Part shown: positions 4,302 through 63,135 of the stretch, piece after piece
Position numbering within the stretch: position 1 is the stretch's first letter
Layout: every line of letters begins with the position of its first letter
Source: Escherichia coli
Lineage (GTDB): Bacteria > Pseudomonadota > Gammaproteobacteria > Enterobacterales > Enterobacteriaceae
NCBI RefSeq assembly: GCF_044324875.1
Contig: NZ_CP172188.1
Strand: one strand, 5' to 3'
DNA: 64,000 nucleotides
Translations under genes and position numbers: made by a program
The notes under the pieces: generated by a model
The model's database searches: none
Told to the model about the DNA's origin: nothing
What the model saw: only the letters and a program-made list of their open reading frames with translations

Positions 4302-4323
4302 GACGCCGAAAGCGTCTTTTCTT
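4302..4323 (+). terminator. rho-independent terminator candidate
   Basis: gacgc-cgaaa-gcgtc hairpin followed by ttttctt. Confidence 0.5.
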
Positions 4324-4329
4324 GTGTCA

Positions 4330-4508
4330 TGCCATCGCACAGCCATACGTAGCGTTTAGCTCAGAGATCAATGGTAGTGCTGGCTGGGCTGCCGAAAGGC
4401 AGGCCGGTTCCCTTTTGCGCCGGTAGTTCCAACCCAGTCAGTGCTACCGCCATTGAGATTGGAACCTCACGCGGTAGCTCCTTAAATTAGCAAAAGGAGG
4501 CTGCCAAT
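4330..4508 (+). promoter_or_regulatory. structured leader of antirepressor module A (differs from the leaders of modules B/C/D)
   Basis: Hairpins ctgcc-gaaa-ggcag (~4388-4401) and gttccaa...ttggaac (~4415-4458); AGGAGG before the ATG at 4509. Confidence 0.3.
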
Positions 4509-4724
4509 ATGGCTACTATCCCTACCCCAACTCATTCTGAATTTATCTGGCGTTTCTATTCCTGCCAAAAACACCTGTATATCTGCGTCATGGCTGCAAC
4601 CGAAGCAGAAGCTCGTTCATACCTTCCTGAAGAACCCTGCATTTTTGCCGCACGCTTCACTCTTGATGCGATGGAGATCCTCAATTACTGGAATCTGCCA
4701 ATGAACTGCGTGGAGGTGCACTGA
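4509..4724 (+). CDS. small protein upstream of the antirepressor (Icd-position ORF, module A)
   Basis: 71 aa; stop overlaps the ATG of the next gene (TGATG); paralogous to 28238-28462, 38110-38325 and 63376-63600. Confidence 0.6.
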   Translation: MATIPTPTHSEFIWRFYSCQKHLYICVMAATEAEARSYLPEEPCIFAARFTLDAMEILNYWNLPMNCVEVH

Positions 4725-5665
4725 TGAATCTGTCCATCTCTCAAAAAGCGACAATGACCAGCATTGAGATCGCGGAACTGGTAGGAAGTCGCCAAGATAG
4801 TGTGAAGAGAACTATCGAAACACTGGCTAAAAAGAGTGTGATCCAATTTCCACAATCTGTGGAAATTGAAAATAAACAATCAGTTGGCCCTCGTCGATTT
4901 TCCAAGGCTTACATCTTTGAAGGCGAACAAGGCAAGCGCGATAGTATCATTGTCGTCGCACAGCTCTCTCCGGAATTCACCGCCCGGCTGGTGGACCGCT
5001 GGCGCGAACTGGAGAATGCCAGGGGACCGTTAAAATCAAAAGCCGAAATCCTGGCTGAAATGGCGCAAATGCATCTTGAGCATGAACGCCGGATCAACGC
5101 CGTAAATGCCCAGGTAGCCGAGGTATCAGCACAAGTATCGATGGTCGCTGAAACACTCGAGCAAATAAAGAAAGGCAATATGCCGGAAGGCTACATTGGC
5201 TACCGCCAGCTGGCGGCGAAATGCGGCCTGACTGAAGCCAAATGTCGCAACCTGGTTAACGCTTACCGGATACCCACTGATACGCATGAGTTTTTGACTC
5301 CCGACGGTTTGCTTGCGCGACGCTCAATTGTGGCCCTGGCCCCCTTCCGGAAAGCCTTTAAGCAGGTTATGTCGGAGGCAGAACCACGCAACAAACGCTG
5401 GTATCATCCAAAGATGGGGATGTTTCAGGCAATCCACCATCCTGTGCCTGAAAGTCCAAAGGCAAACCTGTCGTTGCATACCGCCAGAGAGAGGATTAAA
5501 ACAGGGTATGCAATCGTATGCCGTCGAGCATCTTGGCCTGAAGGTGTATGGGTATGGCCCGAAGGTGGATCACGAAAGCACTGGCGCACTATCCGGGATG
5601 GGAAAATCCATGCGATTGATTTAGCTCCAGAGGATGTTGTTGCTACGGACTGGATTGTTAGTTAA
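4724..5665 (+). CDS. phage antirepressor-type protein (Rha-like N-terminal domain plus conserved C-terminal domain), module A
   Basis: 313 aa; N-terminus ...MTSIEIAELVGSRQDSVKRTIETL... resembles the Rha regulatory domain; C-terminal ~180 aa nearly identical to the module B and C proteins. Confidence 0.6.
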   Translation: MNLSISQKATMTSIEIAELVGSRQDSVKRTIETLAKKSVIQFPQSVEIENKQSVGPRRFSKAYIFEGEQGKRDSIIVVAQLSPEFTARLVDRWRELENARGPLKSKAEILAEMAQMHLEHERRINAVNAQVAEVSAQVSMVAETLEQIKKGNMPEGYIGYRQLAAKCGLTEAKCRNLVNAYRIPTDTHEFLTPDGLLARRSIVALAPFRKAFKQVMSEAEPRNKRWYHPKMGMFQAIHHPVPESPKANLSLHTARERIKTGYAIVCRRASWPEGVWVWPEGGSRKHWRTIRDGKIHAIDLAPEDVVATDWIVS

Positions 5666-7607: not shown

Positions 7608-8363
7608 TTAACGCGTTTTTTCGCTGCTTTCCACTACCGGGGGATTTTTCCTCAGTGACTCTCCCTGAAGGACCACTCGGTGTGAGTTATGTACCAGTCT
7701 GTCCAGGATGGCATCTGCTGTTGTTGGGTTCTCCATCAGACCATGCCATTTATCTACCGGGAACTGGCTTACCACTATCGTGCTGCTTTGTCCGTAACGA
7801 TCCTCTATGAGCTCCAGAAGGTCATTACACTGGGCGTTACTTAACTGTTCCAGCCCCAGATCGTCCAGGATTAGAACCTGTATTTTTTGCAACTGTTTCA
7901 GATATTTCAGCCAGCTGCCATCAACACGTCCCTGAGCCAGTTGTTCCAGTAATCGCCCGGTTCTACAGTACCGGACGCTGTGTTTCTGTCGACATGCCTG
8001 TTCGCCCAGCGCATTGGCTATCCAGCTCTTGCCACATCCTGTCGGACCGGTTATCAGCAGGTTTTTCCTGTGGGTTATGTAGTGGCCGTTCAGCAGTTCT
8101 CTCATCTGTTCAGCCCGCAGACCTCTTGAGGCCGGATAGCGCAGCCCTTCCGGTGTTGCCTGGTATTTCAGGCCGGCATTTTTTCTCAACCGTGCCACAC
8201 GGCTGTTTTCCCTGCTCAGAAGCTCGTCATCAACCAGCAGCGTCAGCCTTTCCTCGAACGACAGTTCGTCGTAGGTCTGAGGCGTTTCCCGCTGCCGTAT
8301 CAGGCTCCCGGCCATCGCCGGGAGTTTCAGTTGGGTCAGTTTGTTTAACAGGTTATCACTCAT
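7608..8363 (-). CDS. istB: IS21-family transposition helper ATPase IstB
   Basis: Walker A GPTGCGKS, DExx-like LILDDLG; start set at MSDNLL with AAGGAA Shine-Dalgarno; the ORF track extends upstream to 8606. Confidence 0.85.
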   Translation of the reverse strand: MSDNLLNKLTQLKLPAMAGSLIRQRETPQTYDELSFEERLTLLVDDELLSRENSRVARLRKNAGLKYQATPEGLRYPASRGLRAEQMRELLNGHYITHRKNLLITGPTGCGKSWIANALGEQACRQKHSVRYCRTGRLLEQLAQGRVDGSWLKYLKQLQKIQVLILDDLGLEQLSNAQCNDLLELIEDRYGQSSTIVVSQFPVDKWHGLMENPTTADAILDRLVHNSHRVVLQGESLRKNPPVVESSEKTR

Positions 8364-8379
8364 ACTGTTGTTCCTTCTG

Positions 8380-9915
8380 TCAGTGGTAGTAGCCCGGACC
8401 ACGCAGGTTTTCATGCTCTGAAGCATATGCCGGATGTTGTTCGCCCTGGCGGGATAATGGAAGCTCCAGGTTCTCCCGATGGTGACGCAGCAGATTGTCG
8501 ATAAAGCGTCTGTCAGGGGCGTTATAGTGCAGGGCAACGTAACAGGCCTTTTCCAGCCGTTCCGGGCCGTATTTTTTCTGAAGTGCCAGCAGCCCCAGAA
8601 CTGCACGATAAGCCAGTTCCGGATGGGGTTTTGCCTTCAGCATGGATTCAACCACCCGGCCTGTGGACGGGCCCGTACGTTTTCCCTGCTCGATCAGGCG
8701 TTCCGGTGTCCATGTCCCGTGCTGCCGGTGGCGCTCTGGCATGTGAAGCGGATTGGTTGTGTGTTTATATTCATGTGTGCTGCGCGGATGTTGCGCCACA
8801 CACTGCCCCTTGTGCCAGAGCTGTACCACCGACTGCCCCGCCTTCAGTGACAGACGCTGACCGACCAGTTCGTGTGGAACGGAGTACCAGTGACGGGCAT
8901 ATTCAACGTGGTAGTCAGGGCCAACCTTCACAGCTTTGTATTCCGTGTATTCATAAGGTGCCAGAGGCAGCGGAGAGAGTGCTGGCGCATCCAGTATGCG
9001 GAAGCGTTCTGCACGGGTTTGATTGCCGTACCCCTTCATTGGCCGGTTATTCATGTCTGTCAGTAACTCCCTAAGGCGCGCATTCAGCGCCCTGAGCGTG
9101 TGGAAGGTTTCATTACGGATGCGGGCAAGAAGCCATCGTTCAACGATGAGGACGCCGTTTTCTGCTTTTGGTTTATCTTTAGGTTTGCGTGGTCGGGCCG
9201 GGATGATAACCGTGCCATAGTGCTCAGCCAGTGCCTGATAACTGTCGTTGATGACAGGCTCATATCGATCGGCCTTTTTCACTGCGCTTCTGAGGTTATC
9301 GGGGATGAGCAGCTTCGGTACGCCGCCCAGGAAGGTCAGGCAACGGCTGTGGGCATTTAACCATGACATCATGTCCTGACCTTCGCACGCTTCAACGTAG
9401 GTATAGTTGGACGCCCCCATTACGGCCACGAAGATTGCCACGCGGCGTATCTCACCGGTGTCCGGATTAATAACAGGAACCGTAGGACCACAGAAGTCGA
9501 TAAAAAGCTTTTCGCCGGCACGATGCTCCTGGCGCATGGAGAGACGTCGCGTTTTTTTCCACTCCCGGTAGCAACGGCAGAAGTGCGAGTATCCCATCGC
9601 TTTGTTACCCGCCTGTGCCTTGTATTCCATCCACAACAGTTGCCGCGTCACACCTGGTTTTCTCATTTCCGTATCGAAGTACAACATGTCAGGCATTACA
9701 AGCTCTGATGCAAAGGTGTCTTTGGGCGGAAAAATGAGTTTCTCCAGCGTGTCATGGGATATATCAGCAGGTAATGGCCATGACAGAGAAGAGGCTTTGA
9801 AGCGGGCAAGAACCTCAAAAACGGTTGAGGCGCTGATGTGTAACGTCAGTCCGATACAACGGTTAGTCAGCTTCTTGTCGAACTTGAGCTGAAGGATCTT
9901 AAAACAGGTTTCCAT
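8380..9915 (-). CDS. istA: IS21-family transposase IstA
   Basis: ~511 aa from METCF... (AGGAG Shine-Dalgarno); N-terminal HTH and a DDE-type core; the ORF track extends to 10026. Confidence 0.85.
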   Translation of the reverse strand: METCFKILQLKFDKKLTNRCIGLTLHISASTVFEVLARFKASSLSWPLPADISHDTLEKLIFPPKDTFASELVMPDMLYFDTEMRKPGVTRQLLWMEYKAQAGNKAMGYSHFCRCYREWKKTRRLSMRQEHRAGEKLFIDFCGPTVPVINPDTGEIRRVAIFVAVMGASNYTYVEACEGQDMMSWLNAHSRCLTFLGGVPKLLIPDNLRSAVKKADRYEPVINDSYQALAEHYGTVIIPARPRKPKDKPKAENGVLIVERWLLARIRNETFHTLRALNARLRELLTDMNNRPMKGYGNQTRAERFRILDAPALSPLPLAPYEYTEYKAVKVGPDYHVEYARHWYSVPHELVGQRLSLKAGQSVVQLWHKGQCVAQHPRSTHEYKHTTNPLHMPERHRQHGTWTPERLIEQGKRTGPSTGRVVESMLKAKPHPELAYRAVLGLLALQKKYGPERLEKACYVALHYNAPDRRFIDNLLRHHRENLELPLSRQGEQHPAYASEHENLRGPGYYH

Positions 9916-10307
9916 AGTGCTCCTGGATTTTCTCTTTCTGGACATTGACGTCTCCACTGGTTTAAACACGGCAATGGAGACTGTGGTGAAAAGAGTTAAT
10001 TCCCGGAGTGACTGGCAGGATGCCAATCAATGATCGGAAGCATGCCAAATCGTGATCGATTGTGATGCCAAACTGTGATCGGAGATGGATGCCAAATCAT
10101 GATCGATTCGAATGCCAAACTGCGATCGATTCAGATGCCATTTTGCAGCCAAATTTCTGTCAAAAAATAAAATCCACAAAAAGTGGTTGACACTATTTTG
10201 GAAATCACAAACTGCACATAATCCATCGCGCTAACGGCTCCCGTTGAAGGTTCTTTTGACGATTAACTTTCAGCCGAAGCGCGGTAGGGAGTCATAACGC
10301 CAAAGCA

Positions 10308-27909: not shown

Positions 27910-27961
27910 TAATTTGAATTTTCGAACATAAACAATAAAATAAATCATCAAAAATTTGATG

Positions 27962-27990
27962 TTGATCTTCCATGTTTTCAGGCTTATATT
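27962..27990 (+). promoter_or_regulatory. sigma70-like promoter of module B
   Basis: TTGATC - 17 bp - TATATT; identical sequence in module D and, reverse-complemented, in module C. Confidence 0.5.
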
Positions 27991-27996
27991 CACGCC

Positions 27997-28237
27997 GTTG
28001 CAGCAAATTCTGCGACCGGGTTTAGCAGCCTGAATGTACATGCGGACAACCGCAGATATCCGATATTGCGGTATTTTTGTGTCCGTAAAACCATGTTACG
28101 CCCGAATTATGGTGGGGCGTGATGGGGAGGCTTCGGCCTGCTGGTTTCATGTACGCCAGTCTGCTAACCCCGTCACGTCCTGCCACCCGTTTAGCAGCGG
28201 GTAGCAGGTTGTTAAACCTGTACATGAGGCCGTAACT
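27997..28237 (+). ncRNA. structured leader with an embedded c4-like antisense regulator and two target sites (module B)
   Basis: Elements TTAGCAG/GTACATG at 28022-28042 and 28191-28226 (the second abuts the GAGG Shine-Dalgarno) are complementary to CATGTAC/CTGCTAA at 28148-28167; the complementarity is kept by compensatory changes in modules C and D. Confidence 0.5.
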
Positions 28238-28462
28238 ATGGTTAATGCCAATCCTTGCTCACGTCCAGAATTCATCTGGCGTTTTCACTCCCTGCAAAAA
28301 CACTGCGATCACTTCGCAATTGCCGCAACTGAAAAAGAAGCCCGTTCTCTGATCCCTGATCAGTATGGTGTTCTTACTGGTCGTTTCTCTACTTCCCCAC
28401 AACCAAACACTAATCCCTGGTATCGCAATATTACCAATCCCGGAATTGCGGAGGCACACTGA
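28238..28462 (+). CDS. small protein upstream of the antirepressor (Icd-position ORF, module B)
   Basis: 74 aa; TGATG coupling to the next gene. Confidence 0.65.
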   Translation: MVNANPCSRPEFIWRFHSLQKHCDHFAIAATEKEARSLIPDQYGVLTGRFSTSPQPNTNPWYRNITNPGIAEAH

Positions 28463-29382
28463 TGGATATCTGCATTCTTGAAAAGCCATCAATGACCAGC
28501 ATTGAGATCGCGGAGCTGGTGGGAAGTCGTCCAGATAACGTAAAAATATCAATAGAGCGCCTGGCTAAATCTGGAGTTATTCAACTTCCTGCATTGCAGG
28601 TTTTCGAAAAAATCAATAACTTAGGACTACGCCGTAGTGTCGAGGCTTACGTCTTCGAAGGCGAGCAAGGCAAACGAGACAGCATTATTGTCGTTGCGCA
28701 GCTCTCTCCCGAATTCACCGCCCGGCTGGTGGACCGCTGGCGCGAACTGGAAGAACAAGTACGCCAGCCGTTGACCGAAATAGAGATGATCGCCGCAATG
28801 GCTGCAAATGCAGTTCAGCAGCAAAAGCGGCTTCATGTTGTTGAGTCAAAGGTTAGCCAGGTTGCTGAAACCGTCGAGCAGATCAAGAAGGGCAACATGC
28901 CAGAAGGTTACATTGGCTACCGCCAGCTGGCGGCGAAATGTGGCCTGACTGAAGCCAAATGTCGCAACCTGGTTAACGCTTTCCGGATTCCCACCGATAC
29001 GCATGAGTTTTTAACTCCAGATGGTTTGCTTGCGCGACGCTCCATTGTGGCCCTGGCCCCCTTCCGGAAAGCCTTTAAGCAGGTGATGTCGGAGGCAGAA
29101 CCACGCAACAAACGCTGGTATCATCCGAAGATGGGGCTGTTTCAGGCAATCCATCATCCTGTGCCTGAAAGCCCAAAGGATAATCTGTCACTACATACCG
29201 TCAGAGAGAAGATCAGGACTGGATACGCAACAGTGTGTCGTCGTTCTTCCTGGCCTGAAGGTATATGGGTGTGGCCCGAAGGTGGATCACGAAAGCACTG
29301 GCGCACTATCCGGGACGGGAAAATCCATGCTATTGATTTAGCGCCAGAGGATATTGTTGCTACGGACTGGATTGTTAGTTAA
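28462..29382 (+). CDS. phage antirepressor-type protein (Rha-like N-domain), module B
   Basis: 306 aa; N-terminus ...MTSIEIAELVGSRPDNVKISIERL...; conserved C-terminal domain. Confidence 0.65.
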   Translation: MDICILEKPSMTSIEIAELVGSRPDNVKISIERLAKSGVIQLPALQVFEKINNLGLRRSVEAYVFEGEQGKRDSIIVVAQLSPEFTARLVDRWRELEEQVRQPLTEIEMIAAMAANAVQQQKRLHVVESKVSQVAETVEQIKKGNMPEGYIGYRQLAAKCGLTEAKCRNLVNAFRIPTDTHEFLTPDGLLARRSIVALAPFRKAFKQVMSEAEPRNKRWYHPKMGLFQAIHHPVPESPKDNLSLHTVREKIRTGYATVCRRSSWPEGIWVWPEGGSRKHWRTIRDGKIHAIDLAPEDIVATDWIVS

Positions 29383-37111: not shown

Positions 37112-38110
37112 TTAACTAACAATCCAGTCCATAGCAATAACATCCTCTGGAGCTAAATCAATAGCATGGATTTTCCCGTCACGGATGGTGCGCCAGTGCT
37201 TTCGTGATCCACCTTCGGGCCATACCCATACACCTTCAGGCCAGGAAGAACGACGACACACTGTTGCGTATCCAGTCCTGATCTTCTCTCTGACGGTATG
37301 CAGTGACAGATTATCTTTTGGGATTTCCGGTAAAGGATGATGGATTGCCTGAAACAGCCCCATCTTCGGATGATACCAGCGTTTGTTGCGTGGTTCTGCC
37401 TCCGACATAACCTGCTTGAAGGCTTTCCGGAAGGGGGCCAGGGCCACAATGGAGCGTCGGGCAAGCAAACCATCTGGAGTTAAAAACTCATGCGTATCGG
37501 TGGGAATCCGGTAAGCGTTGACAAGGTTGCGGCATTTGGCTTCAGTCAGGCCACATTTCGCCGCCAGCTGGCGGTAGCCAATGTAGCCTTCCGGCATATT
37601 GCCTTTCTTGATTTGCTCGACGGTTTCAGCGACTTTGGACACTTGTGCCGATACCTCGGCTACCTGGGCATTTACGGCGTTAATCCGGCGTTCATGTTCA
37701 AGATGCATTTGCGCCATTTCAGCCAGGATTTCGGCTTTTGATTTTAGCGGTGAGTGCTCCGGTATTAATTGCTTAATACGAAAATAGCTGTTTACCAGCT
37801 CACGTTGCACTTGCCAGGCCAGATCGTCATTGAATGACTTAACAATCATTAGATAACCGGACTCAGTGAACACGCGCAAACCGCGCGGGGGGACATTAAT
37901 TCCAAAAGTGTCAAAAACGCCCTTTTCAGAGTAATCAATAAGATAGGTATCTACACCATCAACAAAACGGTGCTTGTTACGATGGAAAGTTGTTTTAGCT
38001 AATCCTTTTGGTCGCTCGTGCACCTCATCAATCATCTCAAAGGTCACTACACGCTGATTTTTATATTCGAGAGTCGGGAATGGTTTGTTATTGATAGTTA
38101 CTGCGTCCAT
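37112..38110 (-). CDS. phage antirepressor-type protein with a KilA-N/ORF6N-like N-domain, module C
   Basis: Start at MDAVTINNKPFPTLEYKNQRVVTFEMIDEVHERPKG... (TAATG coupling with the upstream small ORF); C-terminal ~180 aa nearly identical to modules A and B; the ORF track extends to 38197. Confidence 0.6.
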   Translation of the reverse strand: MDAVTINNKPFPTLEYKNQRVVTFEMIDEVHERPKGLAKTTFHRNKHRFVDGVDTYLIDYSEKGVFDTFGINVPPRGLRVFTESGYLMIVKSFNDDLAWQVQRELVNSYFRIKQLIPEHSPLKSKAEILAEMAQMHLEHERRINAVNAQVAEVSAQVSKVAETVEQIKKGNMPEGYIGYRQLAAKCGLTEAKCRNLVNAYRIPTDTHEFLTPDGLLARRSIVALAPFRKAFKQVMSEAEPRNKRWYHPKMGLFQAIHHPLPEIPKDNLSLHTVREKIRTGYATVCRRSSWPEGVWVWPEGGSRKHWRTIRDGKIHAIDLAPEDVIAMDWIVS

Positions 38111-38325: not shown

Positions 38326-38566
38326 AGTTACGGCCTCATGTACAGGTTTAACAACCTGCTACCCGCTGTCAAACAGGTGGCAGGGCGTGACAGGGTTGAC
38401 AGACTGGCGTACATGAAACCAGCAGGCCGAAGCCTCCCCATCACGCCCCACCATAATTCGGGCGTAACGTGGTTTACGGACACAAAAATACCGCAATATC
38501 GGAAATCTGCGGATGTCCGCATGTACATTCAGGCTGTCAAACCTGGTCGCAGAATTTGCTACGACG
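38326..38566 (-). ncRNA. structured leader with a c4-like antisense regulator (module C)
   Basis: Minus-strand elements TTGACAG/GTACATG (targets) and CATGTAC/CTGTCAA (antisense) in the same arrangement as module B. Confidence 0.5.
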
Positions 38567-38571
38567 GCGTG

Positions 38572-38600
38572 AATATAAGCCTGAACATCTGGAAGATCAA
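38572..38600 (-). promoter_or_regulatory. sigma70-like promoter of module C
   Basis: Reverse complement of TTGATC-17-TATATT. Confidence 0.5.
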
Positions 38601-38653
38601 CATCAAATTGTTGATGATTTATTTTATTATTCATGTTTGAAAATTCAAATTAT

Positions 38654-38789: not shown

Positions 38790-39088
38790 TTTTGAGGGCA
38801 TTTTTTACATCATCAATCCATATGTAATGAAGGCATTCTTTACACATTTCAATAATATCAATCAGTTAGCACAGTGAATGATAATAAAAAAGCGCAATAA
38901 GAATGCACGATACGCACGATATTGGTTGAGGGTAATTTTTACATAATCCTTATATATCAATATGTTATATAAAAACACAACTTACCAATAACAAGATACA
39001 TGCAATTAAGATGTAAAAATTGCCCTCAATTGCCGATCGTTAAGGGCAAATTCTACACCTTGAGAGGGGTGTAAAAATTGCCCTTAAG
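38790..39088. repeat. iteron cluster downstream of repE (copy-control / incompatibility-type repeats)
   Basis: Repeats of TGAGGGCA(A/T)TTTTTACA and inverted copies (for example 38791-38812, 38926-38946, 39010-39029, 39041-39088) in an AT-rich region. Confidence 0.55.
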
Positions 39089-39839
39089 ACTGCTGATAGG
39101 TAAATTTTATCCTGGTAACTTTGCCGCCTTCCGTCACCTCTGAGAAGACTATTTTCATTTTTGTATTTTTTTCAATCTCTGCTACAGCCTTCGTTAAAAA
39201 ACTTCTCTTAAATTCGGCATACCGCTGATAGCTTTTTGGTAACCCATAACGCTCCCGCATCCATTCGACGCCAAGTATGGCAAAGCCGCTTCCATCATCC
39301 TTCCTGTACTGGCATAAGGACTCATAAAGCCGCATAGAATAAGGATTTGTAAGGCGAGATACTTCGGTAAAATTCAGCCTTGTGAATCTCTTATCAAGCA
39401 GAGTAAAAAACGGCATGAGATATGGATTAAGATGAATAATGTAAGTCCCACGCCGTGGTGAATAGGCATCCTTAATCATCCAAGGATAAGACTCATAACT
39501 GTCTTCTGATTCGGTCGATTCATCAGGGTTATATATCGTAACTTTCTTCTCGCTAAGACCTGAAATGGCCTTACGAATATCCTTGCTGGCTTCAGCAGAG
39601 GGCAAATTATACATCTCTGCATATTCGTTGACCGTCAACTCACAGGCACCTGAACCAAGAACGCCATCCTTAGAAGCATAGCGAAGCCTTCCCACCACAA
39701 TAAACAACAGTCGCTTTTGGTCGCGAGTCAGGTGATAAGCAGCCTCCGTGATCTCATTGGCTTGTGCCAAACTACGACTAATAGGTGTCGCTGACTCAAT
39801 CAGGCTGACGGCTTTTGCTGTTAATTCCGCTCTGTTCAT
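39084..39839 (-). CDS. RepE-like iteron-binding replication initiator (mini-F type)
   Basis: ...EAAYHLTRDQKRLLFIVV..., FGLTSAEASKDIR-like NLPSAEASKDIRKAISG, YESYPWMIKDAYSPRRGTYIIHLNPYLMPFF, NPYSMRLYESLCQYRKDDGSG closely resemble F-plasmid RepE as I recall it; start at 39839 (ATG) or 39872 (TTG). Confidence 0.75.
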   Translation of the reverse strand: MNRAELTAKAVSLIESATPISRSLAQANEITEAAYHLTRDQKRLLFIVVGRLRYASKDGVLGSGACELTVNEYAEMYNLPSAEASKDIRKAISGLSEKKVTIYNPDESTESEDSYESYPWMIKDAYSPRRGTYIIHLNPYLMPFFTLLDKRFTRLNFTEVSRLTNPYSMRLYESLCQYRKDDGSGFAILGVEWMRERYGLPKSYQRYAEFKRSFLTKAVAEIEKNTKMKIVFSEVTEGGKVTRIKFTYQQS

Positions 39840-39863
39840 AACCCTGTGTGATCCTTCAAATGG

Positions 39864-40125
39864 TGAGGGCAATTTTTACATCACTTTGAGGGCAATTACT
39901 ACACCTTTTGAGGGCAAATCTTACACCTTCTGAGGGCAAATCTTACACCGATCGTATCTAATTGAGGGCAAATCTTACACCAGACTCCTCTACAGCCCGC
40001 GCCACTACTGGCTCCAGCGACGCCTAAAAAGGATCTAAAAAGGATTAAAAATGGAAAAAGGTTTATAAAAATACTCTGTGGATATGTGAGTAGCGTCACT
40101 TAAGGTGTAAAAATCACCCTCAATA
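39864..40125. repeat. origin-type iterons, AT-rich tract and DnaA-box-like site upstream of repE
   Basis: Five direct ~19-22-bp iterons TGAGGGCAAATCTTACACC (39864-39981), one inverted copy (40105-40123), A-rich tract 40030-40075, TGTGGATAT (~40078-40086) one mismatch from a DnaA box. Confidence 0.6.
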
Positions 40126-41103: not shown

Positions 41104-44100
41104 ATGGCGAGCACTCCATATGTCAAAAGCCCTAGAAGAAAAATACAAAGCTCAAGCCGGGAAACGTTGATCGCCGCTGGCAAAAGAGAGGTTATTTTGA
41201 AAGAGAATAAAGACCGTATCGCAATAATTGACGCTATTCAGGGGGCGAGCACAAACGAACTTAAGGCTCTTGCTGAGATCAAAGACGCCATTCTCTCTGG
41301 TAGAGGGTCTATAACTCAACTTGGTGAAAATCAAGGTAAAGTAAGTCAAAGACTATCCCGTAGACGCATAGCAAGCGAACCCTATGTCTCTGGTGATGCC
41401 AAGAATACCCAAGCTAACCCATATATAAAACGCCTTCCGATGAAAAAAGGGAGGACGCAGGTCAACAACGGAGAAGAACGTCTCATTGTTGCAACCAACA
41501 CATCAGAGCGCGTTCATTTTGCGTCATCACGCCAGTCCGCCCAAAAGTTGAAAGGTTCTGTGCCAGTAGCCGCTAATTCTGCTCCTCTTGAACCACAATC
41601 CCCCCAAAGCCAAAAAGGACCGCTTCGGGATAGTAATGGACGCTTTGTATCCCAGAAAAACAACGAAGATATAGCCAGAAAAAAAGAATGGCAGAACGCA
41701 CGTAAGGCCGACGCCAAACTACAAGAAGGCTTCCTCCGGAAATTAGGCTCCATTATAGGGGTAGATGGCAATCAGTCTTCCAGTGAAGAGTCTTTAACAG
41801 ATGCCGCAGGTGTCGGCGCTGGTGGTCCGTTGTGGATGGCTGCTCGCGGCATGTACGACATTACTAAAGAGATCACAGGTAAAGCAGAATCTCTTAAAGA
41901 ATGGGTAGAAAAGGGGAAAGGTGAGGCTTTATCTTCGAAAGCGACATCACCAGCTATCACTTATCCGGCGGTGGTGAATACTCAAAAAGCAACCTCTGCA
42001 ACAGCATTTAATAATGCTGTTGAGACAAAATCAGCACAAGCAGTAGAAGAGCAAACAAAAATTCTTCAGACCAATGACAACAAAATAATTGATGGTCTGG
42101 AAAATGTCTCCGACGAAGTAGTTAAGCTACGCAAATCAGTATCTTCTGGGAATAAGTTCGGCTTAAGTGATCTCTGGAGAAATCGAGCAAGCAGAAGAAA
42201 TAAAATCAATATTGGCGATCAGGCTGGTAAAAATAAACGGAACAAACCGAAAAGGAAAGGTCGCAATCTGGGGAAAAATGCCCTTTCTGTTGGTGAAAAA
42301 GCCGCTGCCGGAACCGCTGCTGCTGGAGCTGGTGCCGGAGCTGCAAAGACTGTTAAAACAAAGGTTAGTAAAGCCAAAGACATCAGCACCACAAGCGACG
42401 CATCTAAGGGTATTGCTAAAGAAACAAAAAACACAGCAAAGGCAGTTAAGCCAGCAGGTGTTGTTGCCGAAGAGGCCACAATTAAAACAGGTGAAACTGT
42501 TGCAAAGAAAAAAACCGAATCCGTAGCCCTCAAAAGTGCTGCAAAAATAGGTGTTAAATCAGCTGCTTCTACAGCTGCAAGAGCTATCCCGATCATCGGA
42601 TCGCTGGCTATGGCGGGATATGACGCTATAGATGGTTACACTGATACAGATGCGCAAAAGGCAGCCTTTGGATTAAGTGACGATGATGCTGTATCCGAAC
42701 AGCAAAAAACGGCTTACGCAACAGCTAATGTGCTCGATATGGGGGGCTTGGTGTCGGGCGCAACGAACTTGATAGGGAAAGGAATTTCTGCGCTAGGATT
42801 TGAAAGAGCAGGTGAAAAACTTCAGAATTTTGATACCGGAGATATTGCTCGTGGTGTTAACGGCGCGGTAGATATCACCAAATCTGTTTTTGGTAACCTT
42901 AAGGATACATTTTTATCCACTGACGAAAACACGAAACAAGTAAAAAAAGCTGTTGAAGACGGCACAAAAAAAACTGTCGATGCGATTCATTCTCTTGGTG
43001 AACAATTACAAGGTGGGCGTAATGGCGAGGATGGAGTTGGTGAGCACGGGTATACTTCTCCAACTGAATTTAGTGCACCTGCCAACAACACCATTGCAGC
43101 GGATCTGAATATTGGCGGCAGCAACGCTAAAAACCGCAATTACCGAAATAATAATCTCGGCAATCTTGTTTTTGCCAACCAGGAAGGGGCGACGCTGGAA
43201 TCGCCAAATGCAAAAGGTGAACAACGTTTTGCGCGATTTAACACACCTGAAGAAGGGATCAGGGCACTGGCAAACCAGGTTTCCAGCTATTACAACGGCA
43301 CCAGTGCCGCAGCGGGATATCAGAAGTTACAGACGGTATCCAGCATCATTTCAAAATGGGCACCGCCAAATGAGAACAATACTAACCAATATATTGATAA
43401 CGTCAGTAAATATCTTGGTGTATCGCCTAATGAAAAAATAGATGTCAGCAAACCAGAAGTTATGACGCAATTAGTTCGTGCAATTGCGACGAAAGAAGGC
43501 GGAAATCCGGCAGTTAATAATGAGTTCATTAAGAACGCACTTGGAGCATTTAACACAAACACTGGTCGATGGGAGGGACAATTCTCTGACGAAACATTGG
43601 CGCGGATTAATAAAATTCAGAAAGAAAATGGTGGTCAGCTAATTGCCCGCGATTCGCAATATAGTGTTGGTCGCAAGGTAAAATATGCTAATGGAAAATC
43701 TCCAGCTCAACCAGTTTTGAATGCCGTTCCGACAGCAACACAACAGCCAATTGAGGTTGCACAACATGCCCAGGCAGTCAAAAAGCCACAAAAAACAGGT
43801 AACCAACCACAACCGATTAATCCAGAGAACGCTGATGTTAATACCGGCTCTCCATCGAGTTTGCTTGAGCGGTTAATCACAATAAATGAAAGCGGAATCA
43901 GTGGTGCAAGTAATTTATTTGGCGGCGCGGCTACCAGCCTTGCTGGAACAAGTCTGGACCTGGTAAAGGATTTTGCGTTAGCTACTTCGTTTGGTTCTAT
44001 ATCTTCGCTTTCCGAAAAAGCGAAAGGAATGGATCAGGCTCTTACTGAAAAGATATCCAGCTTAACCGGTAAATCTTTTGGATTTAAAAAAGCTTCTCAA

Positions 44101-45168
44101 GTGGCTGATATCGCAACAGCCATACAACAAAAACGCACTGTTAATCACGATACAGAAATCATTGATCTACTTCCGGGAGATCAAGTATCCCCTTCTACTC
44201 CGAAAACTCCACAGCAGGAGCAGGCTCTGGCAATCAACCAGGCTATGGAGGGCTTTTCGTCTGCAGCGCCAGCACCGAAAACCCCACAGCAGGAGCAGGC
44301 TCTGGCAATCAGCCAGGCTATGGCGGGCTTTTCGTCTGCAGCGCCAGCACCGAAAACCCCACAGCAGGAGCAGGCTCTGGCAATCAACCCGGCTATGGAG
44401 GGCTTTTCGTCTGCAGCGCCAGCACCGAAAACCCCACAGCAGGAGCAGGCTCTGGCAATCAGCCAGGCTATGGCGGGCTTTTCGTCTGCAGCGCCAGTAG
44501 TTACCTCTGGAAAACGAACTATCACGGCACCAAGTGATGTGCAGATTTATGACAACGGCTACAAGGTGGTTACAGGTGAGGATAAGAGCTTCTTTGGTTC
44601 GCTATTTGATTCCACGGTGTCAGGGCTTAAACAGACAGGAACCGCAGTAATTCCTGCCGTTGGCGATAACCTTTCACGACTTGTTGGGGGGATTGATAGT
44701 ACAGGGATATTGAACGATCTTGTAATGCAGTCTACTGGGCAGAATAGTGCGATTGCGCGAGCTATTAGCCCATTAACAAGAAATGTTGGAGACTGGTTGA
44801 ATGGGGGGATTCAACAAACCGCTAATAGCATTAGGGGAATAGCAACTGGTGCCAATAACGCCATATTTGGCTCTGCTTCAGCTGTGCAAGAACCTTTTCT
44901 TGCTATGCCGCCACAACTCCCTACTGTAACCGATCTCGCACGAAGCGGAATAAGACAACCATTAACTACTGACACTATAAATAACGATCCTGCTATGTTG
45001 AAGGCGCTGGATAACATCTGCTCTATCCTGAACGATCTGCTGAATGTGAACAAGAACAATACAAAAGGCGATCCGGATAATGTTGTCAAAACATCGCAGC
45101 CGCAGCCGCGACCACGTGCGAGCACAACTATTAATGACCAGTCGCTGGATGCTCTGCTTGAGGATTAA
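41104..45168 (+). CDS. tail tape-measure-like protein with an internal putative peptidoglycan-hydrolase-like region
   Basis: 1354 aa; Ala/Gly-rich helical stretches, internal 25-aa tandem repeats, and the region NRNYRNNNLGNLVFANQEGA...GGNPAVNNEF; located immediately upstream of baseplate genes. Confidence 0.55.
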   Translation: MASTPYVKSPRRKIQSSSRETLIAAGKREVILKENKDRIAIIDAIQGASTNELKALAEIKDAILSGRGSITQLGENQGKVSQRLSRRRIASEPYVSGDAKNTQANPYIKRLPMKKGRTQVNNGEERLIVATNTSERVHFASSRQSAQKLKGSVPVAANSAPLEPQSPQSQKGPLRDSNGRFVSQKNNEDIARKKEWQNARKADAKLQEGFLRKLGSIIGVDGNQSSSEESLTDAAGVGAGGPLWMAARGMYDITKEITGKAESLKEWVEKGKGEALSSKATSPAITYPAVVNTQKATSATAFNNAVETKSAQAVEEQTKILQTNDNKIIDGLENVSDEVVKLRKSVSSGNKFGLSDLWRNRASRRNKINIGDQAGKNKRNKPKRKGRNLGKNALSVGEKAAAGTAAAGAGAGAAKTVKTKVSKAKDISTTSDASKGIAKETKNTAKAVKPAGVVAEEATIKTGETVAKKKTESVALKSAAKIGVKSAASTAARAIPIIGSLAMAGYDAIDGYTDTDAQKAAFGLSDDDAVSEQQKTAYATANVLDMGGLVSGATNLIGKGISALGFERAGEKLQNFDTGDIARGVNGAVDITKSVFGNLKDTFLSTDENTKQVKKAVEDGTKKTVDAIHSLGEQLQGGRNGEDGVGEHGYTSPTEFSAPANNTIAADLNIGGSNAKNRNYRNNNLGNLVFANQEGATLESPNAKGEQRFARFNTPEEGIRALANQVSSYYNGTSAAAGYQKLQTVSSIISKWAPPNENNTNQYIDNVSKYLGVSPNEKIDVSKPEVMTQLVRAIATKEGGNPAVNNEFIKNALGAFNTNTGRWEGQFSDETLARINKIQKENGGQLIARDSQYSVGRKVKYANGKSPAQPVLNAVPTATQQPIEVAQHAQAVKKPQKTGNQPQPINPENADVNTGSPSSLLERLITINESGISGASNLFGGAATSLAGTSLDLVKDFALATSFGSISSLSEKAKGMDQALTEKISSLTGKSFGFKKASQVADIATAIQQKRTVNHDTEIIDLLPGDQVSPSTPKTPQQEQALAINQAMEGFSSAAPAPKTPQQEQALAISQAMAGFSSAAPAPKTPQQEQALAINPAMEGFSSAAPAPKTPQQEQALAISQAMAGFSSAAPVVTSGKRTITAPSDVQIYDNGYKVVTGEDKSFFGSLFDSTVSGLKQTGTAVIPAVGDNLSRLVGGIDSTGILNDLVMQSTGQNSAIARAISPLTRNVGDWLNGGIQQTANSIRGIATGANNAIFGSASAVQEPFLAMPPQLPTVTDLARSGIRQPLTTDTINNDPAMLKALDNICSILNDLLNVNKNNTKGDPDNVVKTSQPQPRPRASTTINDQSLDALLED
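44200..44500 (+). repeat. four in-frame tandem ~75-bp repeats inside the tape-measure-like gene
   Basis: Unit encodes APAPKTPQQEQALAI(N/S)QAM(E/A)GFSSA; read directly from the sequence. Confidence 0.8.
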
Positions 45169-47925: not shown

Positions 47926-48372
47926 ATGGCTGAAAATTTAAAGGCAAGAGATGGTAACCGCCTGTATAAGGCGCAATTGCTTTCCTACTATTATTCACGC
48001 CGCGCTGAGTCGGCGATCGGCAAAGGTGCGCGTTTTGTTATCTCTAAGGCGTATTGGTGCAAATCTAGTCTGGTAACTGCTAATGGTGCAGGAGGCTGGA
48101 ATATAGCGGACATTCCACTCGATTTTAAATTGAGTAACGCTCAACAGTTTGCTGTGTCCGATCTGATATTGTCCAGTGTGGATGGGATTATCACTATCAA
48201 TGCAGCCTTCCCTCAAGAAAGAATGCCGGATAACACGCCTTACGACTTTAACACGCTTGTGCTTGTGGATGCTGAGGAACAGGCTTTTGCTGTGCTTTGC
48301 ACCCAGCAAGACACCCTCTATAAAGGTAAACGTTACAGTATTCTCATGACAATCGAGCAAGTTGAGGGTTGA
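47926..48372 (+). CDS. hypothetical tail protein
   Basis: 148 aa; stop overlaps the tail-fibre start. Confidence 0.35.
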   Translation: MAENLKARDGNRLYKAQLLSYYYSRRAESAIGKGARFVISKAYWCKSSLVTANGAGGWNIADIPLDFKLSNAQQFAVSDLILSSVDGIITINAAFPQERMPDNTPYDFNTLVLVDAEEQAFAVLCTQQDTLYKGKRYSILMTIEQVEG

Positions 48373-51257
48373 TTATGGGTGCTGATAAAACGAACAACAT
48401 AATGACACTATCCTCTGGTGTCTCACAGCCGTTGCTTGCTGATGTTCAATATTTCGAACTCTATAGTAGTTCGGCTCTTAACAGAAAACTTAAAAATATT
48501 GTTTTGCCGGGCTTTTACTGTGGATTTGAACCGGTTCCCGGCACAGGGTTGAGTGTCCGTATAACTTCTGAAAACTCAGAAGGTAAAGGGGCTGCTTCAG
48601 TAGATGTAAATAATGTTCAGATATCCGTTCAGCAAATAGAAGATGTGACTGTCTCGGTAAAGGCAGGGGCTACCAACATTATTGTGCTGGAAGCCAATTT
48701 TGAACATGGTGTAAAAACGACACAGGTAGATAGCGCATCTTCTGTCAGTGCTGCAAGAATTTACGCGCGTACGGACAATACTATTGGGCAGAATCAAATT
48801 GAATTATGTCGAGTTATCGTGCCTAGCGGCGCAACGGCTGTGACTAAAGAAATGATTGTGCTTAAATACCGGGTTAACCGTGCTGTTGGTGTCGAATTCT
48901 CTAATGAAATAAGCAGTACAGAAGAAAGAAAAGCGGCTACACCTCTGGCTGTCAAAACTCTCCATGATTTGGTTGATACAAAAGCCCCGATCAACAGCCC
49001 GAATCTGACAGGAACGCCAACAACACCAACAGCGCCACAGGGGACTAATAATACCCAGATCGCAAGCACGGCTTTCGTTATGGCCGCGATTGCCGCACTT
49101 GTAGATTCGTCACCTGATGCACTTAACACTCTGAACGAACTGGCCGCCGCGCTTGGTAATGATCCGAACTTTTCCGCGACAGTGACTCGCCTGATTGGAG
49201 AAAAAGTTGCCAAAGATGGCGACACCATGACAGGTAAACTTAATCTGCCGCAGACCTCTGCATTCGGCATCAATACCAACAACAGACTGGGGGGGAACTC
49301 TCTGACGCTGGGCGATCACGATACCGGAATTAAACAGGAAGGAGACGGCGTATTGTCCGTGTTCGCCAACGGCCAGCGTGTGTTCCTTTTCACGGAAAGA
49401 AGTATTACCTCATTAAAAGAGCTTCTGATAGGGGATGCACGTTATAGCACCGGTGGTGATGTGTATGGCAGTCAGTGGGGAGACGGTTGGTTGAGTTCCT
49501 GGTTAAGTGCTCGCTTTGCAGAGTGTGCCAACGCCAGCCATAACCACCCTTGGAGCCAGATTACCGACGTACCAGCAGCCAGCCTCACTCAGAGCGGCAT
49601 TGTACAACTTAGTAGTGCCATCAACAGCACTTCTGAAACATTAGCTGCAACTCCAAAAGCGGTTAAAGCTGCATACGATCTAGCAGCCGGAAAGGCACCA
49701 TCCAGTCATACACACCCCTGGAATCAGATCACTGGTGTGCCAACAGCTTCATTGACAGCGAAAGGCATCACTCAGCTCAGTAGTGCTACTAACAGCACGT
49801 CTGAAGTGCTGGCCGCCACACCAAAAGCTGTCAAGGCTGCATATGACCTGGCTAACGGGAAGTATACAGCCCAGGATGCAACCACGACACAAAAAGGGAT
49901 AGTTCAGCTCAGTAGCGACACCAACAGCACTTCTGAAACATTAGCTGCAACTCCAAAAGCGGTTAAAGCTGCATACGATCTAGCAGCCGGAAAGGCACCA
50001 TCCAGTCATACACACCCCTGGAATCAGATCACTGGTGTGCCAACAGCTTCATTGACAGCGAAAGGCATCACTCAGCTCAGTAGTGCTACTAACAGCACGT
50101 CTGAAGTGCTGGCCGCTACACCGAAAGCGGTTAAAGCTGCATACGATCTAGCAGCCGGAAAGGCACCATCCAATCATATACATCCCTGGAATCAGATCAC
50201 TGGTGTGCCAACAGCTTCATTGACAGCGAAAGGCATCACTCAGCTCAGTAGTGCCACTAACAGCACGTCTGAAGTGCTGGCCGCTACACCGAAAGCGGTT
50301 AAAGCTGCATACGATCTAGCAGCCGGAAAGGCACCATCCAGTCATACACACCCCTGGAATCAGATCACTGGTGTGCCAACAGCTTCATTGACAGCGAAAG
50401 GCATCACTCAGCTCAGTAGTGCTACTAACAGCACGTCTGAAGTGCTGGCCGCTACACCGAAAGCGGTTAAAGCTGCATACGATCTAGCAGCCGGAAAGGC
50501 ACCATCCAATCATATACATCCCTGGAATCAGATCACTGGTGTGCCAACAGCTTCATTGACAGCGAAAGGCATCACTCAGCTCAGTAGTGCCACTAACAGC
50601 ACGTCTGAAGTGCTGGCCGCTACACCGAAAGCGGTTAAAGCTGCATACGATCTAGCAGCCGGAAAGGCACCATCCAATCATATACATCCCTGGAATCAGA
50701 TCACTGGTGTGCCAACAGCTTCATTGACAGCGAAAGGCATCACTCAGCTCAGTAGTGCCACTAACAGCACGTCTGAAGTGCTGGCCGCTACACCGAAAGC
50801 TGTCAAGGCTGCATACGATCTGGCAAACGGAAAACAACCGGCAGATGCCACGCTCACTGCTCTGGCAGGACTTGCCACTGCAGCAGATCGGTTGCCTTAT
50901 TTTACCGGAGCAGACCGCGCAGCGCTGACAACCCTTACAGCTATTGGTCGCGCTATTATCGCTAAGGGCAGTATAAAAGATGTCCTCAATTACCTTGGTT
51001 TAGGAGAAGGCTCGGCGCTACCCGTTGGTGTGCCTGTTCCATGGCCCACCGCCACACCGCCAGCAGGCTGGTTAAAGTGCGACGGGCGCGCCTTTACAAA
51101 AGAACAATATCCTGTTCTGGCCAGAGTCTACCCGACCCTCCGTCTTCCCGATTTACGCGGTGAGTTTATCCGTGGATGGGACGACGGGCGAAAAGTTGAT
51201 ACAGGGCGCGATTGCTTTCACGGCAAGGGGTACAAGTTTTTCTCATTACGGAGGTAA
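48369..51257 (+). CDS. tail fibre protein with variable C-terminus encoded in the invertible segment
   Basis: 962 aa; about seven tandem ~60-aa repeats containing ATPKAVKAAYDLA...H.HPW.QITGVP (classic fibre repeat); the last ~85 aa lie inside the invertible segment. Confidence 0.7.
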   Translation: MIMGADKTNNIMTLSSGVSQPLLADVQYFELYSSSALNRKLKNIVLPGFYCGFEPVPGTGLSVRITSENSEGKGAASVDVNNVQISVQQIEDVTVSVKAGATNIIVLEANFEHGVKTTQVDSASSVSAARIYARTDNTIGQNQIELCRVIVPSGATAVTKEMIVLKYRVNRAVGVEFSNEISSTEERKAATPLAVKTLHDLVDTKAPINSPNLTGTPTTPTAPQGTNNTQIASTAFVMAAIAALVDSSPDALNTLNELAAALGNDPNFSATVTRLIGEKVAKDGDTMTGKLNLPQTSAFGINTNNRLGGNSLTLGDHDTGIKQEGDGVLSVFANGQRVFLFTERSITSLKELLIGDARYSTGGDVYGSQWGDGWLSSWLSARFAECANASHNHPWSQITDVPAASLTQSGIVQLSSAINSTSETLAATPKAVKAAYDLAAGKAPSSHTHPWNQITGVPTASLTAKGITQLSSATNSTSEVLAATPKAVKAAYDLANGKYTAQDATTTQKGIVQLSSDTNSTSETLAATPKAVKAAYDLAAGKAPSSHTHPWNQITGVPTASLTAKGITQLSSATNSTSEVLAATPKAVKAAYDLAAGKAPSNHIHPWNQITGVPTASLTAKGITQLSSATNSTSEVLAATPKAVKAAYDLAAGKAPSSHTHPWNQITGVPTASLTAKGITQLSSATNSTSEVLAATPKAVKAAYDLAAGKAPSNHIHPWNQITGVPTASLTAKGITQLSSATNSTSEVLAATPKAVKAAYDLAAGKAPSNHIHPWNQITGVPTASLTAKGITQLSSATNSTSEVLAATPKAVKAAYDLANGKQPADATLTALAGLATAADRLPYFTGADRAALTTLTAIGRAIIAKGSIKDVLNYLGLGEGSALPVGVPVPWPTATPPAGWLKCDGRAFTKEQYPVLARVYPTLRLPDLRGEFIRGWDDGRKVDTGRDCFHGKGYKFFSLRR
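49540..50830 (+). repeat. tandem ~180-bp in-frame repeats in the tail-fibre gene
   Basis: Near-identical units with few substitutions (for example SSHTHPW versus SNHIHPW). Confidence 0.8.
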
Positions 51258-53036
51258 TTTCGACATTGGGTCTGGTTATTCAATCAATAACTACGACCAA
51301 TAGTTGTTTCTAACAACCAAGATTTTCCCGACCTTCATGAGGGCCTTTAACGAGGTGATGGGGTTAACATGTAACCATTCGTCCTGGTAACATTGTTTAA
51401 TTATATGGTATGCAGGCTATAAACGTTGGTTTAGGAGAAGCGGCGCTATGCGTTGGTGTGCCTGTTCAGTGGCCCCCGCCACACCGCCATTGCAGGCTTA
51501 ATTAAATTGTGAGGGCGCGTTTACAAAAGAACAATATCAGTTCTGGCCAGAAAACCCGACCCTCCGCTTCCCGATTTAGCGGTGCGATATCCGTGGATCA
51601 CTATGACGAGACGAAAGGTTGATACACGGGCGTGCCTCTTTGGAGTTTCGCCCTTGGGACTATCGTATCCGGTTTTGATGCGCCGATGCATACCGGAGAT
51701 TTCAGGTTACGTGGTCGGCTGCCACACAAACGGATGGTGACGCATTTAACCTGATCACCTGGGGGTATAAATGGCAAAAAGTGGATATTTGATGCATCCC
51801 AACCGGTGCACAAAGATATGACTGGCGGACTTACCACCAGCAAAACAGCCTGCCACAATATGGGATTTAACTATATCGTGAAGGCGGCGTATACCGTTAC
51901 TGAACGGCATAGAGCCGCAGTGGCGCTGGCCAGCTGCAACGCCAGAAACCTTGTGATATCCAGGCGTTCAGCTCGTCGATATAATCCAGCACGGCGGGCA
52001 GTTTTGCCGTTTCTTCCAGTTTCAGACTGCGACCTGCCCGCCGTTTGGGTTGATAGGTCGACGGCTTCACGCCTGGATCCACCCGGCACTGGCGTTGCAG
52101 TTGGCAAGTCTCCAGCTCTGCGGCTCTATGCCGGCTCAGTATCACGCCGCCCACGATTACCGTTCCAGGTATCCCATGGTGTGGCAGGCTGTTTTGTGGT
52201 GGTGTCCGCCGGTAATCACCCGGTTGAGGTGCATCAGAACGGGGTTCCCGTTTTCCGTTTATACCGTCTCCCGCGGTGATTAGGGTTACATGCGTCCCAA
52301 ATCCGTTCAGTGTGGCAGTCCGAAACCACGTAACCCGATATCCTCCGGTATGCATTATCATCACGAACCGGAGTACGATAGTCCCAAGGGCGAGATACTG
52401 AAAGTAGCGCACGCCCGGTATCAACCTTTCGTCCGTCATATCCACGGATAAACTCACCGCGTAAATCGGGAAGACGGATCGGTTAGACTCTGGCCAGAAC
52501 AGGATATTGTTCTTTTGTAAACGCGCCCTCACAATGTAACCAGCCTGCTACGGCGGTGTGACGGTGATACCCTTCGCATACAGGCTTCTGATAGAGGTCA
52601 GAATAGTAGCCTGCATACCATTGTCTGACATTACCACGATGTTACGAGGATCGCTGAATGTTGTCCCGTCCGGCATTTTGAAGGCCCTCACGAAGGTCTG
52701 TAATGGAATCTTCATTGTTGAATCCCATGCCGACTATCCCCGAGGTTCCCGTAGTGTCCTGGTTATAATAATCCAGCATTGCTGTTCTTAACAGCGTTGC
52801 CCCTTGTGCGGACAGCAACTTACGTCCTGTATCAACTTTGCGCCCGTCGTCCCATCCACGGATAAACTCACCGCGTAAATCGGGAAGACGGAGGGTCGGG
52901 TAGGCTCTGGCCAGAACAGGATATTGTTCTTTTGTAAAGGCGCGCCCGTCGCACTTTAACCAGCCTGCTGGCGGTGTGGCGGTGGGCCACGGAACAGGCA
53001 CACCAACGGGTAGCGCCGAGCCTTCTCCTAAACCAA
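50995..53036. other. invertible tail-fibre segment (Cin/Gin-type) with ~210-bp inverted repeats plus two degenerate internal repeat copies
   Basis: IR-L 50995-51205 and IR-R 52826-53036 are near-identical inverted copies beginning with TTGGTTTAGGAGAAGG; degenerate copies at ~51425-51640 (direct) and ~52440-52570 (inverted, partial); invertase gene starts 67 bp beyond IR-R. Confidence 0.6.
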
Positions 53037-63129: not shown

Positions 63130-63135
63130 CATGCC

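Follow-up and report, generated by a model that had tools for sequence, protein, structure and literature searches.

Upstream of a short open reading frame near the middle of a 64,000-nt stretch of Escherichia coli DNA (this whole stretch is referred to here as the window), the 7-nt elements TTAGCAG and GTACATG occur twice in sense and once as reverse complement, which raises the question of what kind of constraint holds the three copies of each element together. A first-pass annotation of the sequence had proposed that this module (B) and two similar ones (C and D) contain an RNA-RNA pairing interface like that of the c4 RNA of phages P1 and P7 with its a and b target sites, rather than a protein-coding constraint, and that the three modules would be partly or wholly hetero-specific. 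The element positions given for module B, including a second GTACATG that adjoins GAGG, were all confirmed by reading of the sequence and by motif search, and positions 27997-28237 are the untranslated leader of a small operon.

By BLAST, the window is a D6-like phage-plasmid, of a group known from E. coli and Salmonella. Matches to P1 and P7 in BLAST cover only 27977-28349, at 88-89% identity, from the promoter to the first icd codons. A whole-window scan with Rfam models placed the C4 family (RF01695, clan CL00128) at four of four loci, with full-length model matches of 68.8-76.7 bits, above the gathering score of 45. The four cassettes of the window lie at about 4.3 kb (A), 28 kb (B, between upfB-like genes and the capsid gene), 38 kb (C, on the minus strand, between a RepA-like gene and the tail tube gene) and 63 kb (D). 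All share one order of parts: a leader with the sense elements a1 and b1, the c4 RNA with the complementary elements b' and a', a second sense pair a2 and b2, an icd-like ORF and an antirepressor gene (Table 1). In the same scan the c4-a1b1 motif (RF03163) passed in B, C and D (53.5-55 bits against a gathering score of 46.7), and in module A it is replaced upstream of c4 by isrK (RF01394, 59.4 bits against 50).

Table 1. Features of the four c4 cassettes in the window.
Module	Feature	Position	Strand	Basis or remark
A	isrK-type leader	4244-4322	+	RF01394, 59.4 bits; terminator-like hairpin 4301-4317 at its end
A	a1 TTGGAAC, b1 GCAAAAGG	4270-4276, 4287-4294	+	within isrK leader
A	c4 RNA	4367-4454	+	RF01695, 76.7 bits; b' CCUUUUGC 4411-4418; a' GUUCCAA 4426-4432
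A	a2, b2	4459-4465, 4490-4497	+	b2 overlaps AAGGAGG
A	icd-like ORF	4509-4724	+	phrog_1426
A	Rha-type antirepressor	4724-5665	+	Ant-family phrog; Rha-type N-terminal domain
B	promoter-like site	27962-27990	+	TTGATC, 17-nt spacer, TATATT; aligns with the annotated, constitutive sigma-70 promoter P1c4 (formerly P51b) of P1
B	c4-a1b1 leader motif	27984-28036	+	RF03163, 53.5 bits; two hairpins
B	a1 TTAGCAG	28022-28028	+	predicted in or beside loop of the leader's second hairpin
B	b1 GTACATG	28036-28042	+	predicted single-stranded
B	c4 antisense RNA, 77 nt	28111-28187	+	extent from alignment to annotated P1 c4; RF01695, 71.7 bits, match 28105-28190
B	b' CAUGUAC	28148-28154	+	9-nt hairpin loop (fold)
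B	a' CUGCUAA	28161-28167	+	7-nt junction (fold)
B	a2 TTAGCAG	28191-28197	+	hairpin loop, then spacer hairpin (fold)
B	b2 GTACATG	28220-28226	+	last base is first G of GAGG Shine-Dalgarno 28226-28229, 8 nt before ATG 28238
B	icd-like ORF, 74 aa	28238-28462	+	phrog_1426, E 5.7e-39; aligns with P1 Icd; stop overlaps ant start (TGATG)
B	antirepressor, 306 aa	28462-29382	+	phrog_63 anti-repressor Ant, E 3e-64; weak Rha-type N-terminus, Pfam Phage_pRha, E 0.002
C	c4-a1b1 leader motif	38526-38578	-	RF03163, 55 bits
C	a1 TTGACAG	38534-38540	-	motif search
C	b1 GTACATG	38520-38526	-	immediately 3' of c4-a1b1 motif
C	c4 RNA	38373-38458	-	RF01695, 69.9 bits; b' CAUGUAC 38409-38415; a' CUGUCAA 38396-38402
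C	a2 TTGACAG, b2 GTACATG	38366-38372, 38337-38343	-	b2 adjoins icd Shine-Dalgarno
C	icd-like ORF, 71 aa	38110-38325	-	phrog_1426
C	antirepressor, 332 aa	37112-38110	-	Pfam ORF6N N-terminal domain, E 1.3e-11
D	c4-a1b1 leader motif	63123-63175	+	RF03163, 54.4 bits
D	a1 TTGACAG, b1 GTTAGTG	63161-63167, 63175-63181	+	b1 begins on last base of motif
D	c4 RNA	63243-63328	+	RF01695, 68.8 bits; 77-nt core 63249-63325; b' 63286-63292; a' 63299-63305
D	a2 TTGACAG, b2 GTTAGTG	63329-63335, 63358-63364	+	motif search
D	icd-like ORF	63376-63600	+	phrog_1426
D	ant	from 63600, cut at window end 64000	+	present part aligns with B antirepressor

Icd homologues of 71-74 aa are encoded in all four cassettes (phrog_1426, E 1e-37 to 1e-41), and the icd stop codon overlaps the start of the Ant-family gene. 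The three complete antirepressors (A 4724-5665, B 28462-29382, C 37112-38110) are near-identical over their last ~190 aa and carry N-terminal domains of Rha, Rha and ORF6N type, respectively; the Icd of C is close to those of A and P1, and the Icds of B and D are alike. Judged from these comparisons, the cassettes are mosaic, and their breakpoints lie within icd and ant.

Several other elements were seen around the cassettes. An IS21-like element (7608-10128, with 47-nt terminal repeats at 10018-10128) lies ~2 kb downstream of module A and has istB-like (7608-8606) and istA-like (8380-10026) ORFs, both on the minus strand. An iteron-like 22-bp repeat is present four times at 39864-39949, directly upstream of the RepA-like ORF (39084-39872, minus strand), and marks a probable plasmid origin adjoining module C. 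In-frame tandem repeats occur in a 1354-aa ORF at 41104-45168, in the position of the sit-like gene of D6 and P1 (75 nt x 4, 44200-44497), and in a 962-aa tail-fibre-like ORF at 48369-51257 (168 nt x 5.5, 49904-50833), and two direct-repeat pairs (45 and 51 nt, 92-96% identical, spacing ~415 nt) are found at 52434-52943. Directly upstream of the -35 element of B (27946-27961, plus strand) and of C (38601-38616, minus strand), and not of D, there is a 16-bp palindrome (CATCAAAAATTTGATG and CATCAACAATTTGATG, respectively), possibly an operator for some regulator.

If the a/b pair of a module is taken as its address, A reads TTGGAAC / GCAAAAGG, B TTAGCAG / GTACATG, C TTGACAG / GTACATG and D TTGACAG / GTTAGTG, the last being P1's own pair. 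The joint change that had been described for module D is present at every copy (sense 63161-63181 and 63329-63364, reverse complement 63286-63305), as is the mixture of TTGACAG with GTACATG and matching antisense described for module C (sense 38520-38540 and 38337-38372, reverse complement 38396-38415, minus strand). Module A, not covered by the proposal, obeys the same rule (4270-4294, 4411-4432 and 4459-4497). The consensus a-b pattern has three matches in the window against 0.03 expected. Aligned over 247 columns, B, C and D differ at 25, of which 15 fall inside the 42 element columns (hypergeometric P = 2.6e-7). When 27 distinct leaders were compared, all cells were Watson-Crick (100%) for a1b1:c4 and for c4:a2b2, with no wobble intermediates; in both partner sets 7/14 pairs had changed on both sides and 0/14 on one side only. 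Alignment of the leaders with covariation scoring, the check suggested alongside the original proposal, gives strict covariation, with an observed score that was reached in 0/500 shuffles, and registers slid by 1-3 columns pair at 25-50%. Homology, predicted structure, site positions and this strict compensatory covariation are what the present data show directly.

A protein-coding reading of the leader, for which ORFs at 28034-28204 (plus strand) and 28022-28225 (minus strand) are available, was considered and rejected, given that the variation is Watson-Crick compensatory and that c4 is a known RNA. The c4 region (28034-28225 of the window) has been entered as a protein in CP043746.1, FO818745.1 and X15639.1 ("transcriptional regulator", "c4: CDS"); this annotation in public records is a persisting old misreading of an RNA gene. 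The window was also searched for extra trans targets of the c4 RNAs, and no cognate a-b pair was found in it outside the four modules except at 50759-50806 (minus strand), where TTGACAG, a 34-nt gap and GTTAGTG lie antisense to the tail-fibre repeats. This candidate was set aside as probably due to chance.

Predicted folds agree with a pairing role for the elements. For each of the four c4 RNAs the canonical long stem and its two hairpins are predicted, at -42 to -46 kcal/mol (z -5.3 to -5.5; c4-B -45.3 kcal/mol, z -5.5), with agreement of minimum-energy and centroid folds; in these folds the loop of hairpin two contains b', and a' is a 7-nt junction, both unpaired. In module B, the full 266-nt leader is predicted to form a chain of independent domains, in which the very stable c4 domain (z -5.1) leaves a' and b' free, a2 lies in a hairpin loop, and b2 and the Shine-Dalgarno sequence are single-stranded. 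In the isolated pieces and in the whole leader alike, a' and b' are unpaired and a2, b2 and the Shine-Dalgarno sequence are exposed. No intrinsic terminator was called by a simple scan after b1 in the P1-type leaders, where the folds show a compound hairpin, not a clean terminator. The isrK leader of module A is built like the P1-type a1b1 leader, with a hairpin, a hairpin with a1 in its loop, a single-stranded b1 and a terminal hairpin.

Energies of inter-segment pairing, the second check suggested with the proposal, are ~-7 kcal/mol per bare element for cognate duplexes, and non-cognate duplexes range from ~+1 to -3. Between the two a alleles, the effective difference amounts to a single A-C mismatch plus a G-U wobble. 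The c4 RNAs differ from one another only in a', b' and 1-2 stem bases, and on sequence grounds specificity would reside almost wholly in two variable bases of a and four of b, so that the four c4 RNAs are expected to address different targets. The b element is common to B and C, and the a element to C and D; B and D have no element in common, and A is orthogonal to the other three. The earlier description of the modules as partly or wholly hetero-specific fits this complementarity and these duplex energies, and would hold by analogy with the P1/P7 precedent.

The repertoire of addresses was surveyed in public collections. In IMG/VR, a search pattern with a constant c4 backbone and unconstrained a' and b' gave at least 80 loci, from which allele frequencies are rough; the loci listed, together with P1, P7 and the window modules, form a set of 86 modules. 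All six combinations of a (TTAGCAG, TTGACAG) with b (GTTAGTG, GATTGTG, GTACATG) occur among the matches listed, and a seventh type with b = GTTCAAG, also internally matched, is represented by one locus (L041). Among the IMG/VR matches listed and the references, 83/83 modules that are readable on both sides are consistent throughout: a1 and a2 are the same and complementary to a', and b1 and b2 are the same and complementary to b'. In an independent sample drawn from metagenomes and genomes (24 modules), 22 are readable on both flanks and 21/22 of these are matched, giving fully matched elements in 104/105 modules readable on both flanks among the matches listed and this second sample. The exception (L090, 12290-12510, contig ERZ779880 NODE-979, ~4x coverage) has a' CTGCTAA against TTGACAG in its own a1 and a2, with b matched, and could reflect either chimeric assembly from two near-identical modules in the same host or a natural half-mismatched cassette in which the a mismatch is tolerated. 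Four scans of all IMG/VR yielded no non-cognate c4/target combinations, and two cognate versions with the same spacers matched 42 and 19 of the IMG/VR loci already collected. Two more IMG/VR scans, which took one half of the sequence space each, looked for additional variants of a' or b' on this c4 backbone and found none. The GTDB representative genomes contain only 2 matches, too few to judge co-residence, and in PLSDB the leader is present in 575 plasmids at 685 places, most plasmids having one copy and a minority two or three.

Co-resident modules were available in 8 contig or genome sets (the window included), and in 14/14 pairs the modules differ in at least one element, a difference that is only suggestive because the sets are related plasmids. 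Because the order a1-b1-b'-a'-a2-b2 is interleaved, one crossover is not enough to produce a new a/b combination, and several exchanges are needed. That all six are nevertheless present, and in matched form, argues for selection on pairing. Address and cargo are uncoupled: each of the six addresses occurs with P1 Ant1-type genes, and several of them also with genes of Rha and ORF6N type, so that specificity is not tied to antirepressor type.

The system is the known P1/P7 c4 mechanism with new alleles, and the observation is a rediscovery of a classic, Rfam-curated system. In phages P1 and P7, c4 is the immunity factor that genetic work has defined as acting in trans (Citron and Schuster 1990, cited in PMC12197685), and the c4 mechanism, in which a few variable bases set immunity specificity, has been known since that work (Citron and Schuster 1990, cited in PMC12197685 and in the supplement of PMC2864571). 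The leaders of B, C and D have 93% mean column identity to the immI leaders of P1 and P7, and the features of the P1 record (the P1c4/P51b promoter, a1, b1, c4, a2, b2 and icd) fall on homologous columns. In module D, c4 is identical to that of P1 (77/77), and the leader matches at 241/243 positions. Part order, c4 structure, the conserved N-terminus of Icd and the overlap of icd stop and ant start are likewise those of P1 immI. The proposal of an RNA-RNA interface of the P1/P7 c4 type is hence borne out by the Rfam C4 and c4-a1b1 matches, the colinearity of the leaders with the P1 features and the identity of c4-D with P1 c4. In P1, c4 is processed by RNase P, and Rho-dependent polarity acts on ant.

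The window departs from P1 in other respects. Homology to P1 ends inside icd; the antirepressors are of Rha and ORF6N type rather than Ant1/2 and are only ~24% identical to P1 Ant1; and the replicon has four cassettes as opposed to one. The P1-type C1 operator (Op51, ATTGCTCTAATAAATTT) has no match within 3 mismatches anywhere in the window, and therefore none upstream of any module, so the connection with the primary repressor may be unlike that in P1; this absence concerns the wiring of P1 and not the RNA family. P7, which is heteroimmune to P1 through c4, shares the a element TTAGCAG with module B and follows the same principle, in that a few bases in a' and b' and their targets set the immunity specificity. 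The b element of modules B and C (GTACATG) is that of neither P1 (GTTAGTG) nor P7 (GATTGTG).

Module A resembles the isrK-orf45-anrP region of Salmonella prophage Gifsy-1 in having isrK, a terminator-like hairpin and a small ORF coupled to an antirepressor gene, and its isrK part carries the sense copies a1 and b1; unlike in Gifsy-1, a canonical c4 sits between isrK and the ORF. In Gifsy-1, IsrK activates translation of anrP in trans, and in the long transcript the isrK part pairs in cis with downstream sequence (PMC4825925); c4 is not described in the accessible part of that paper. The arrangement in module A suggests that IsrK RNAs belong to c4 systems, as their a1b1 partner, and by analogy the isrK of module A may serve as an anti-c4 decoy. 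Phage D6 (MF356679) has the same backbone as the window, module A (orf82/83) and one P1-type module beside repL, in the position of D; it has no cassettes at the positions of B and C and thus two in all. One D6-like plasmid has been described in print as having a second c4/icd region, without specificity analysis (PMC6799933). No description of the allele repertoire or of the stacking of hetero-specific cassettes was found in the searchable literature.

In the ColE1 RNA I/II, R1 CopA/CopT and P22 sar/ant systems, too, short exposed loops set the partners, and few changes suffice for mutually blind specificities; in P22 the antirepressor is likewise under antisense RNA control. These systems are not homologous to c4, which is encoded upstream on the strand of its own target, not opposite it, and uses two separate recognition elements.

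Very probably, each of the four loci is a self-contained secondary-immunity cassette of the P1 immI type in which c4 blocks icd and ant. By analogy with P1, the promoter would drive one transcript comprising the a1/b1 leader, the 77-nt c4, a2/b2, the icd-like ORF and the translationally coupled antirepressor, and c4 would be excised from it, with b' displayed by a hairpin loop and a' by a single-stranded junction. Pairing of a' and b' with a2 and b2 would cover the icd ribosome-binding site and block translation of Icd, and through coupling and polarity also antirepressor synthesis. This scheme draws on the P1/P7 work for the action of c4 in trans, its processing, the block of translation, polarity, and how far half-matching modules really cross-talk. 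The upstream pair a1/b1 (in module A, within the isrK RNA) would be a second cognate partner able to compete for c4, as has long been proposed for a1/b1 against a2/b2 (supplement of PMC2864571). Since a1 and b1 covary as strictly as a2 and b2, these upstream sites, long called "putative", are likely to be functional partners of c4.

Other explanations of the matched elements can be weighed against this scheme. The elements might act in cis only, as alternative helices of one leader (an attenuator or switch), in which case there would be no antisense RNA to diffuse and the modules would not differ in immunity specificity. Such pairing is geometrically possible, as a1-b1-b'-a' and b'-a'-a2-b2 are each perfectly nested, and the cis pairing of the isrK part in the long Gifsy-1 transcript (PMC4825925) gives it a precedent; yet the minimum-energy fold of the whole leader keeps c4 independent (z -5.1) with a' and b' unpaired, and the leaders have 93% identity to those of P1 and P7, where c4 acts in trans (PMC12197685), with c4-D identical to P1 c4. 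We therefore regard a purely cis-acting role as very unlikely. It is hardly credible, in turn, that modules B and C have no separate function, being recent duplicates or remnants of recombination in which the matching stems from descent and gene conversion and not from selection on pairing. The near-identical C-terminal halves of the Ant proteins of A, B and C, the mosaic build of the modules, the lack of B and C in D6 and the single copy in most leader-bearing plasmids (575 records, 685 places) would all suit such an origin. However, every ORF is intact, and 110-170 nt separate the three sites of an element, with a and b interleaved, so that several separate exchanges are needed per new combination, and all six combinations exist, with 104/105 modules matched among the matches listed and the second sample; furthermore, variation is concentrated in the elements (P = 2.6e-7), and one specificity is found with different Ant cargo.

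The repeated 7-mers could also be read as operator-like DNA sites for a protein, in keeping with short direct and inverted repeats near a promoter and a ribosome-binding site. This reading is almost certainly wrong: the inverted copy is always in a loop or junction of an RNA that matches Rfam C4, direct repeats need no inverted partner at fixed RNA positions, and the changes are strictly Watson-Crick compensatory, which protein binding would not demand. Antisense RNA cassettes of the P1 immI type thus remain the preferred interpretation of all four loci.

As a mechanism this adds nothing beyond the P1/P7 c4 paradigm and would not surprise a specialist. What is new here is modest, namely a third b allele, GTACATG, and the stacking of several hetero-specific cassettes on one replicon, which holds three P1-type cassettes and one of isrK type, all differently addressed. 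The natural two-element code is combinatorial, with six a x b combinations, each matched, uncoupled from the type of antirepressor. More tentatively, and as a possibility that we do not favour over others, D6-like phage-plasmids may stack c4-icd-ant cassettes under a combinatorial two-key code (at least two a alleles and three to four b alleles on a near-invariant backbone) in an immunity arms race of multiple locks and multiple keys. If this were true, the set of c4 RNAs would define which antirepressors of related phages a prophage silences, including that of P1 via module D, and the set of antirepressors, with their different addresses, would determine the resident relatives that the phage can override on infection; the half-matching pairs (B/C and C/D) would give graded, not all-or-none, cross-immunity. 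As the address of module D is identical to that of P1, cross-immunity of D6-like plasmids and P1 is predicted. From their sequences, the cassettes would offer a natural set of near-orthogonal antisense regulators, and the code yields testable predictions of superinfection immunity for phage-plasmids that are widespread in E. coli and Salmonella.
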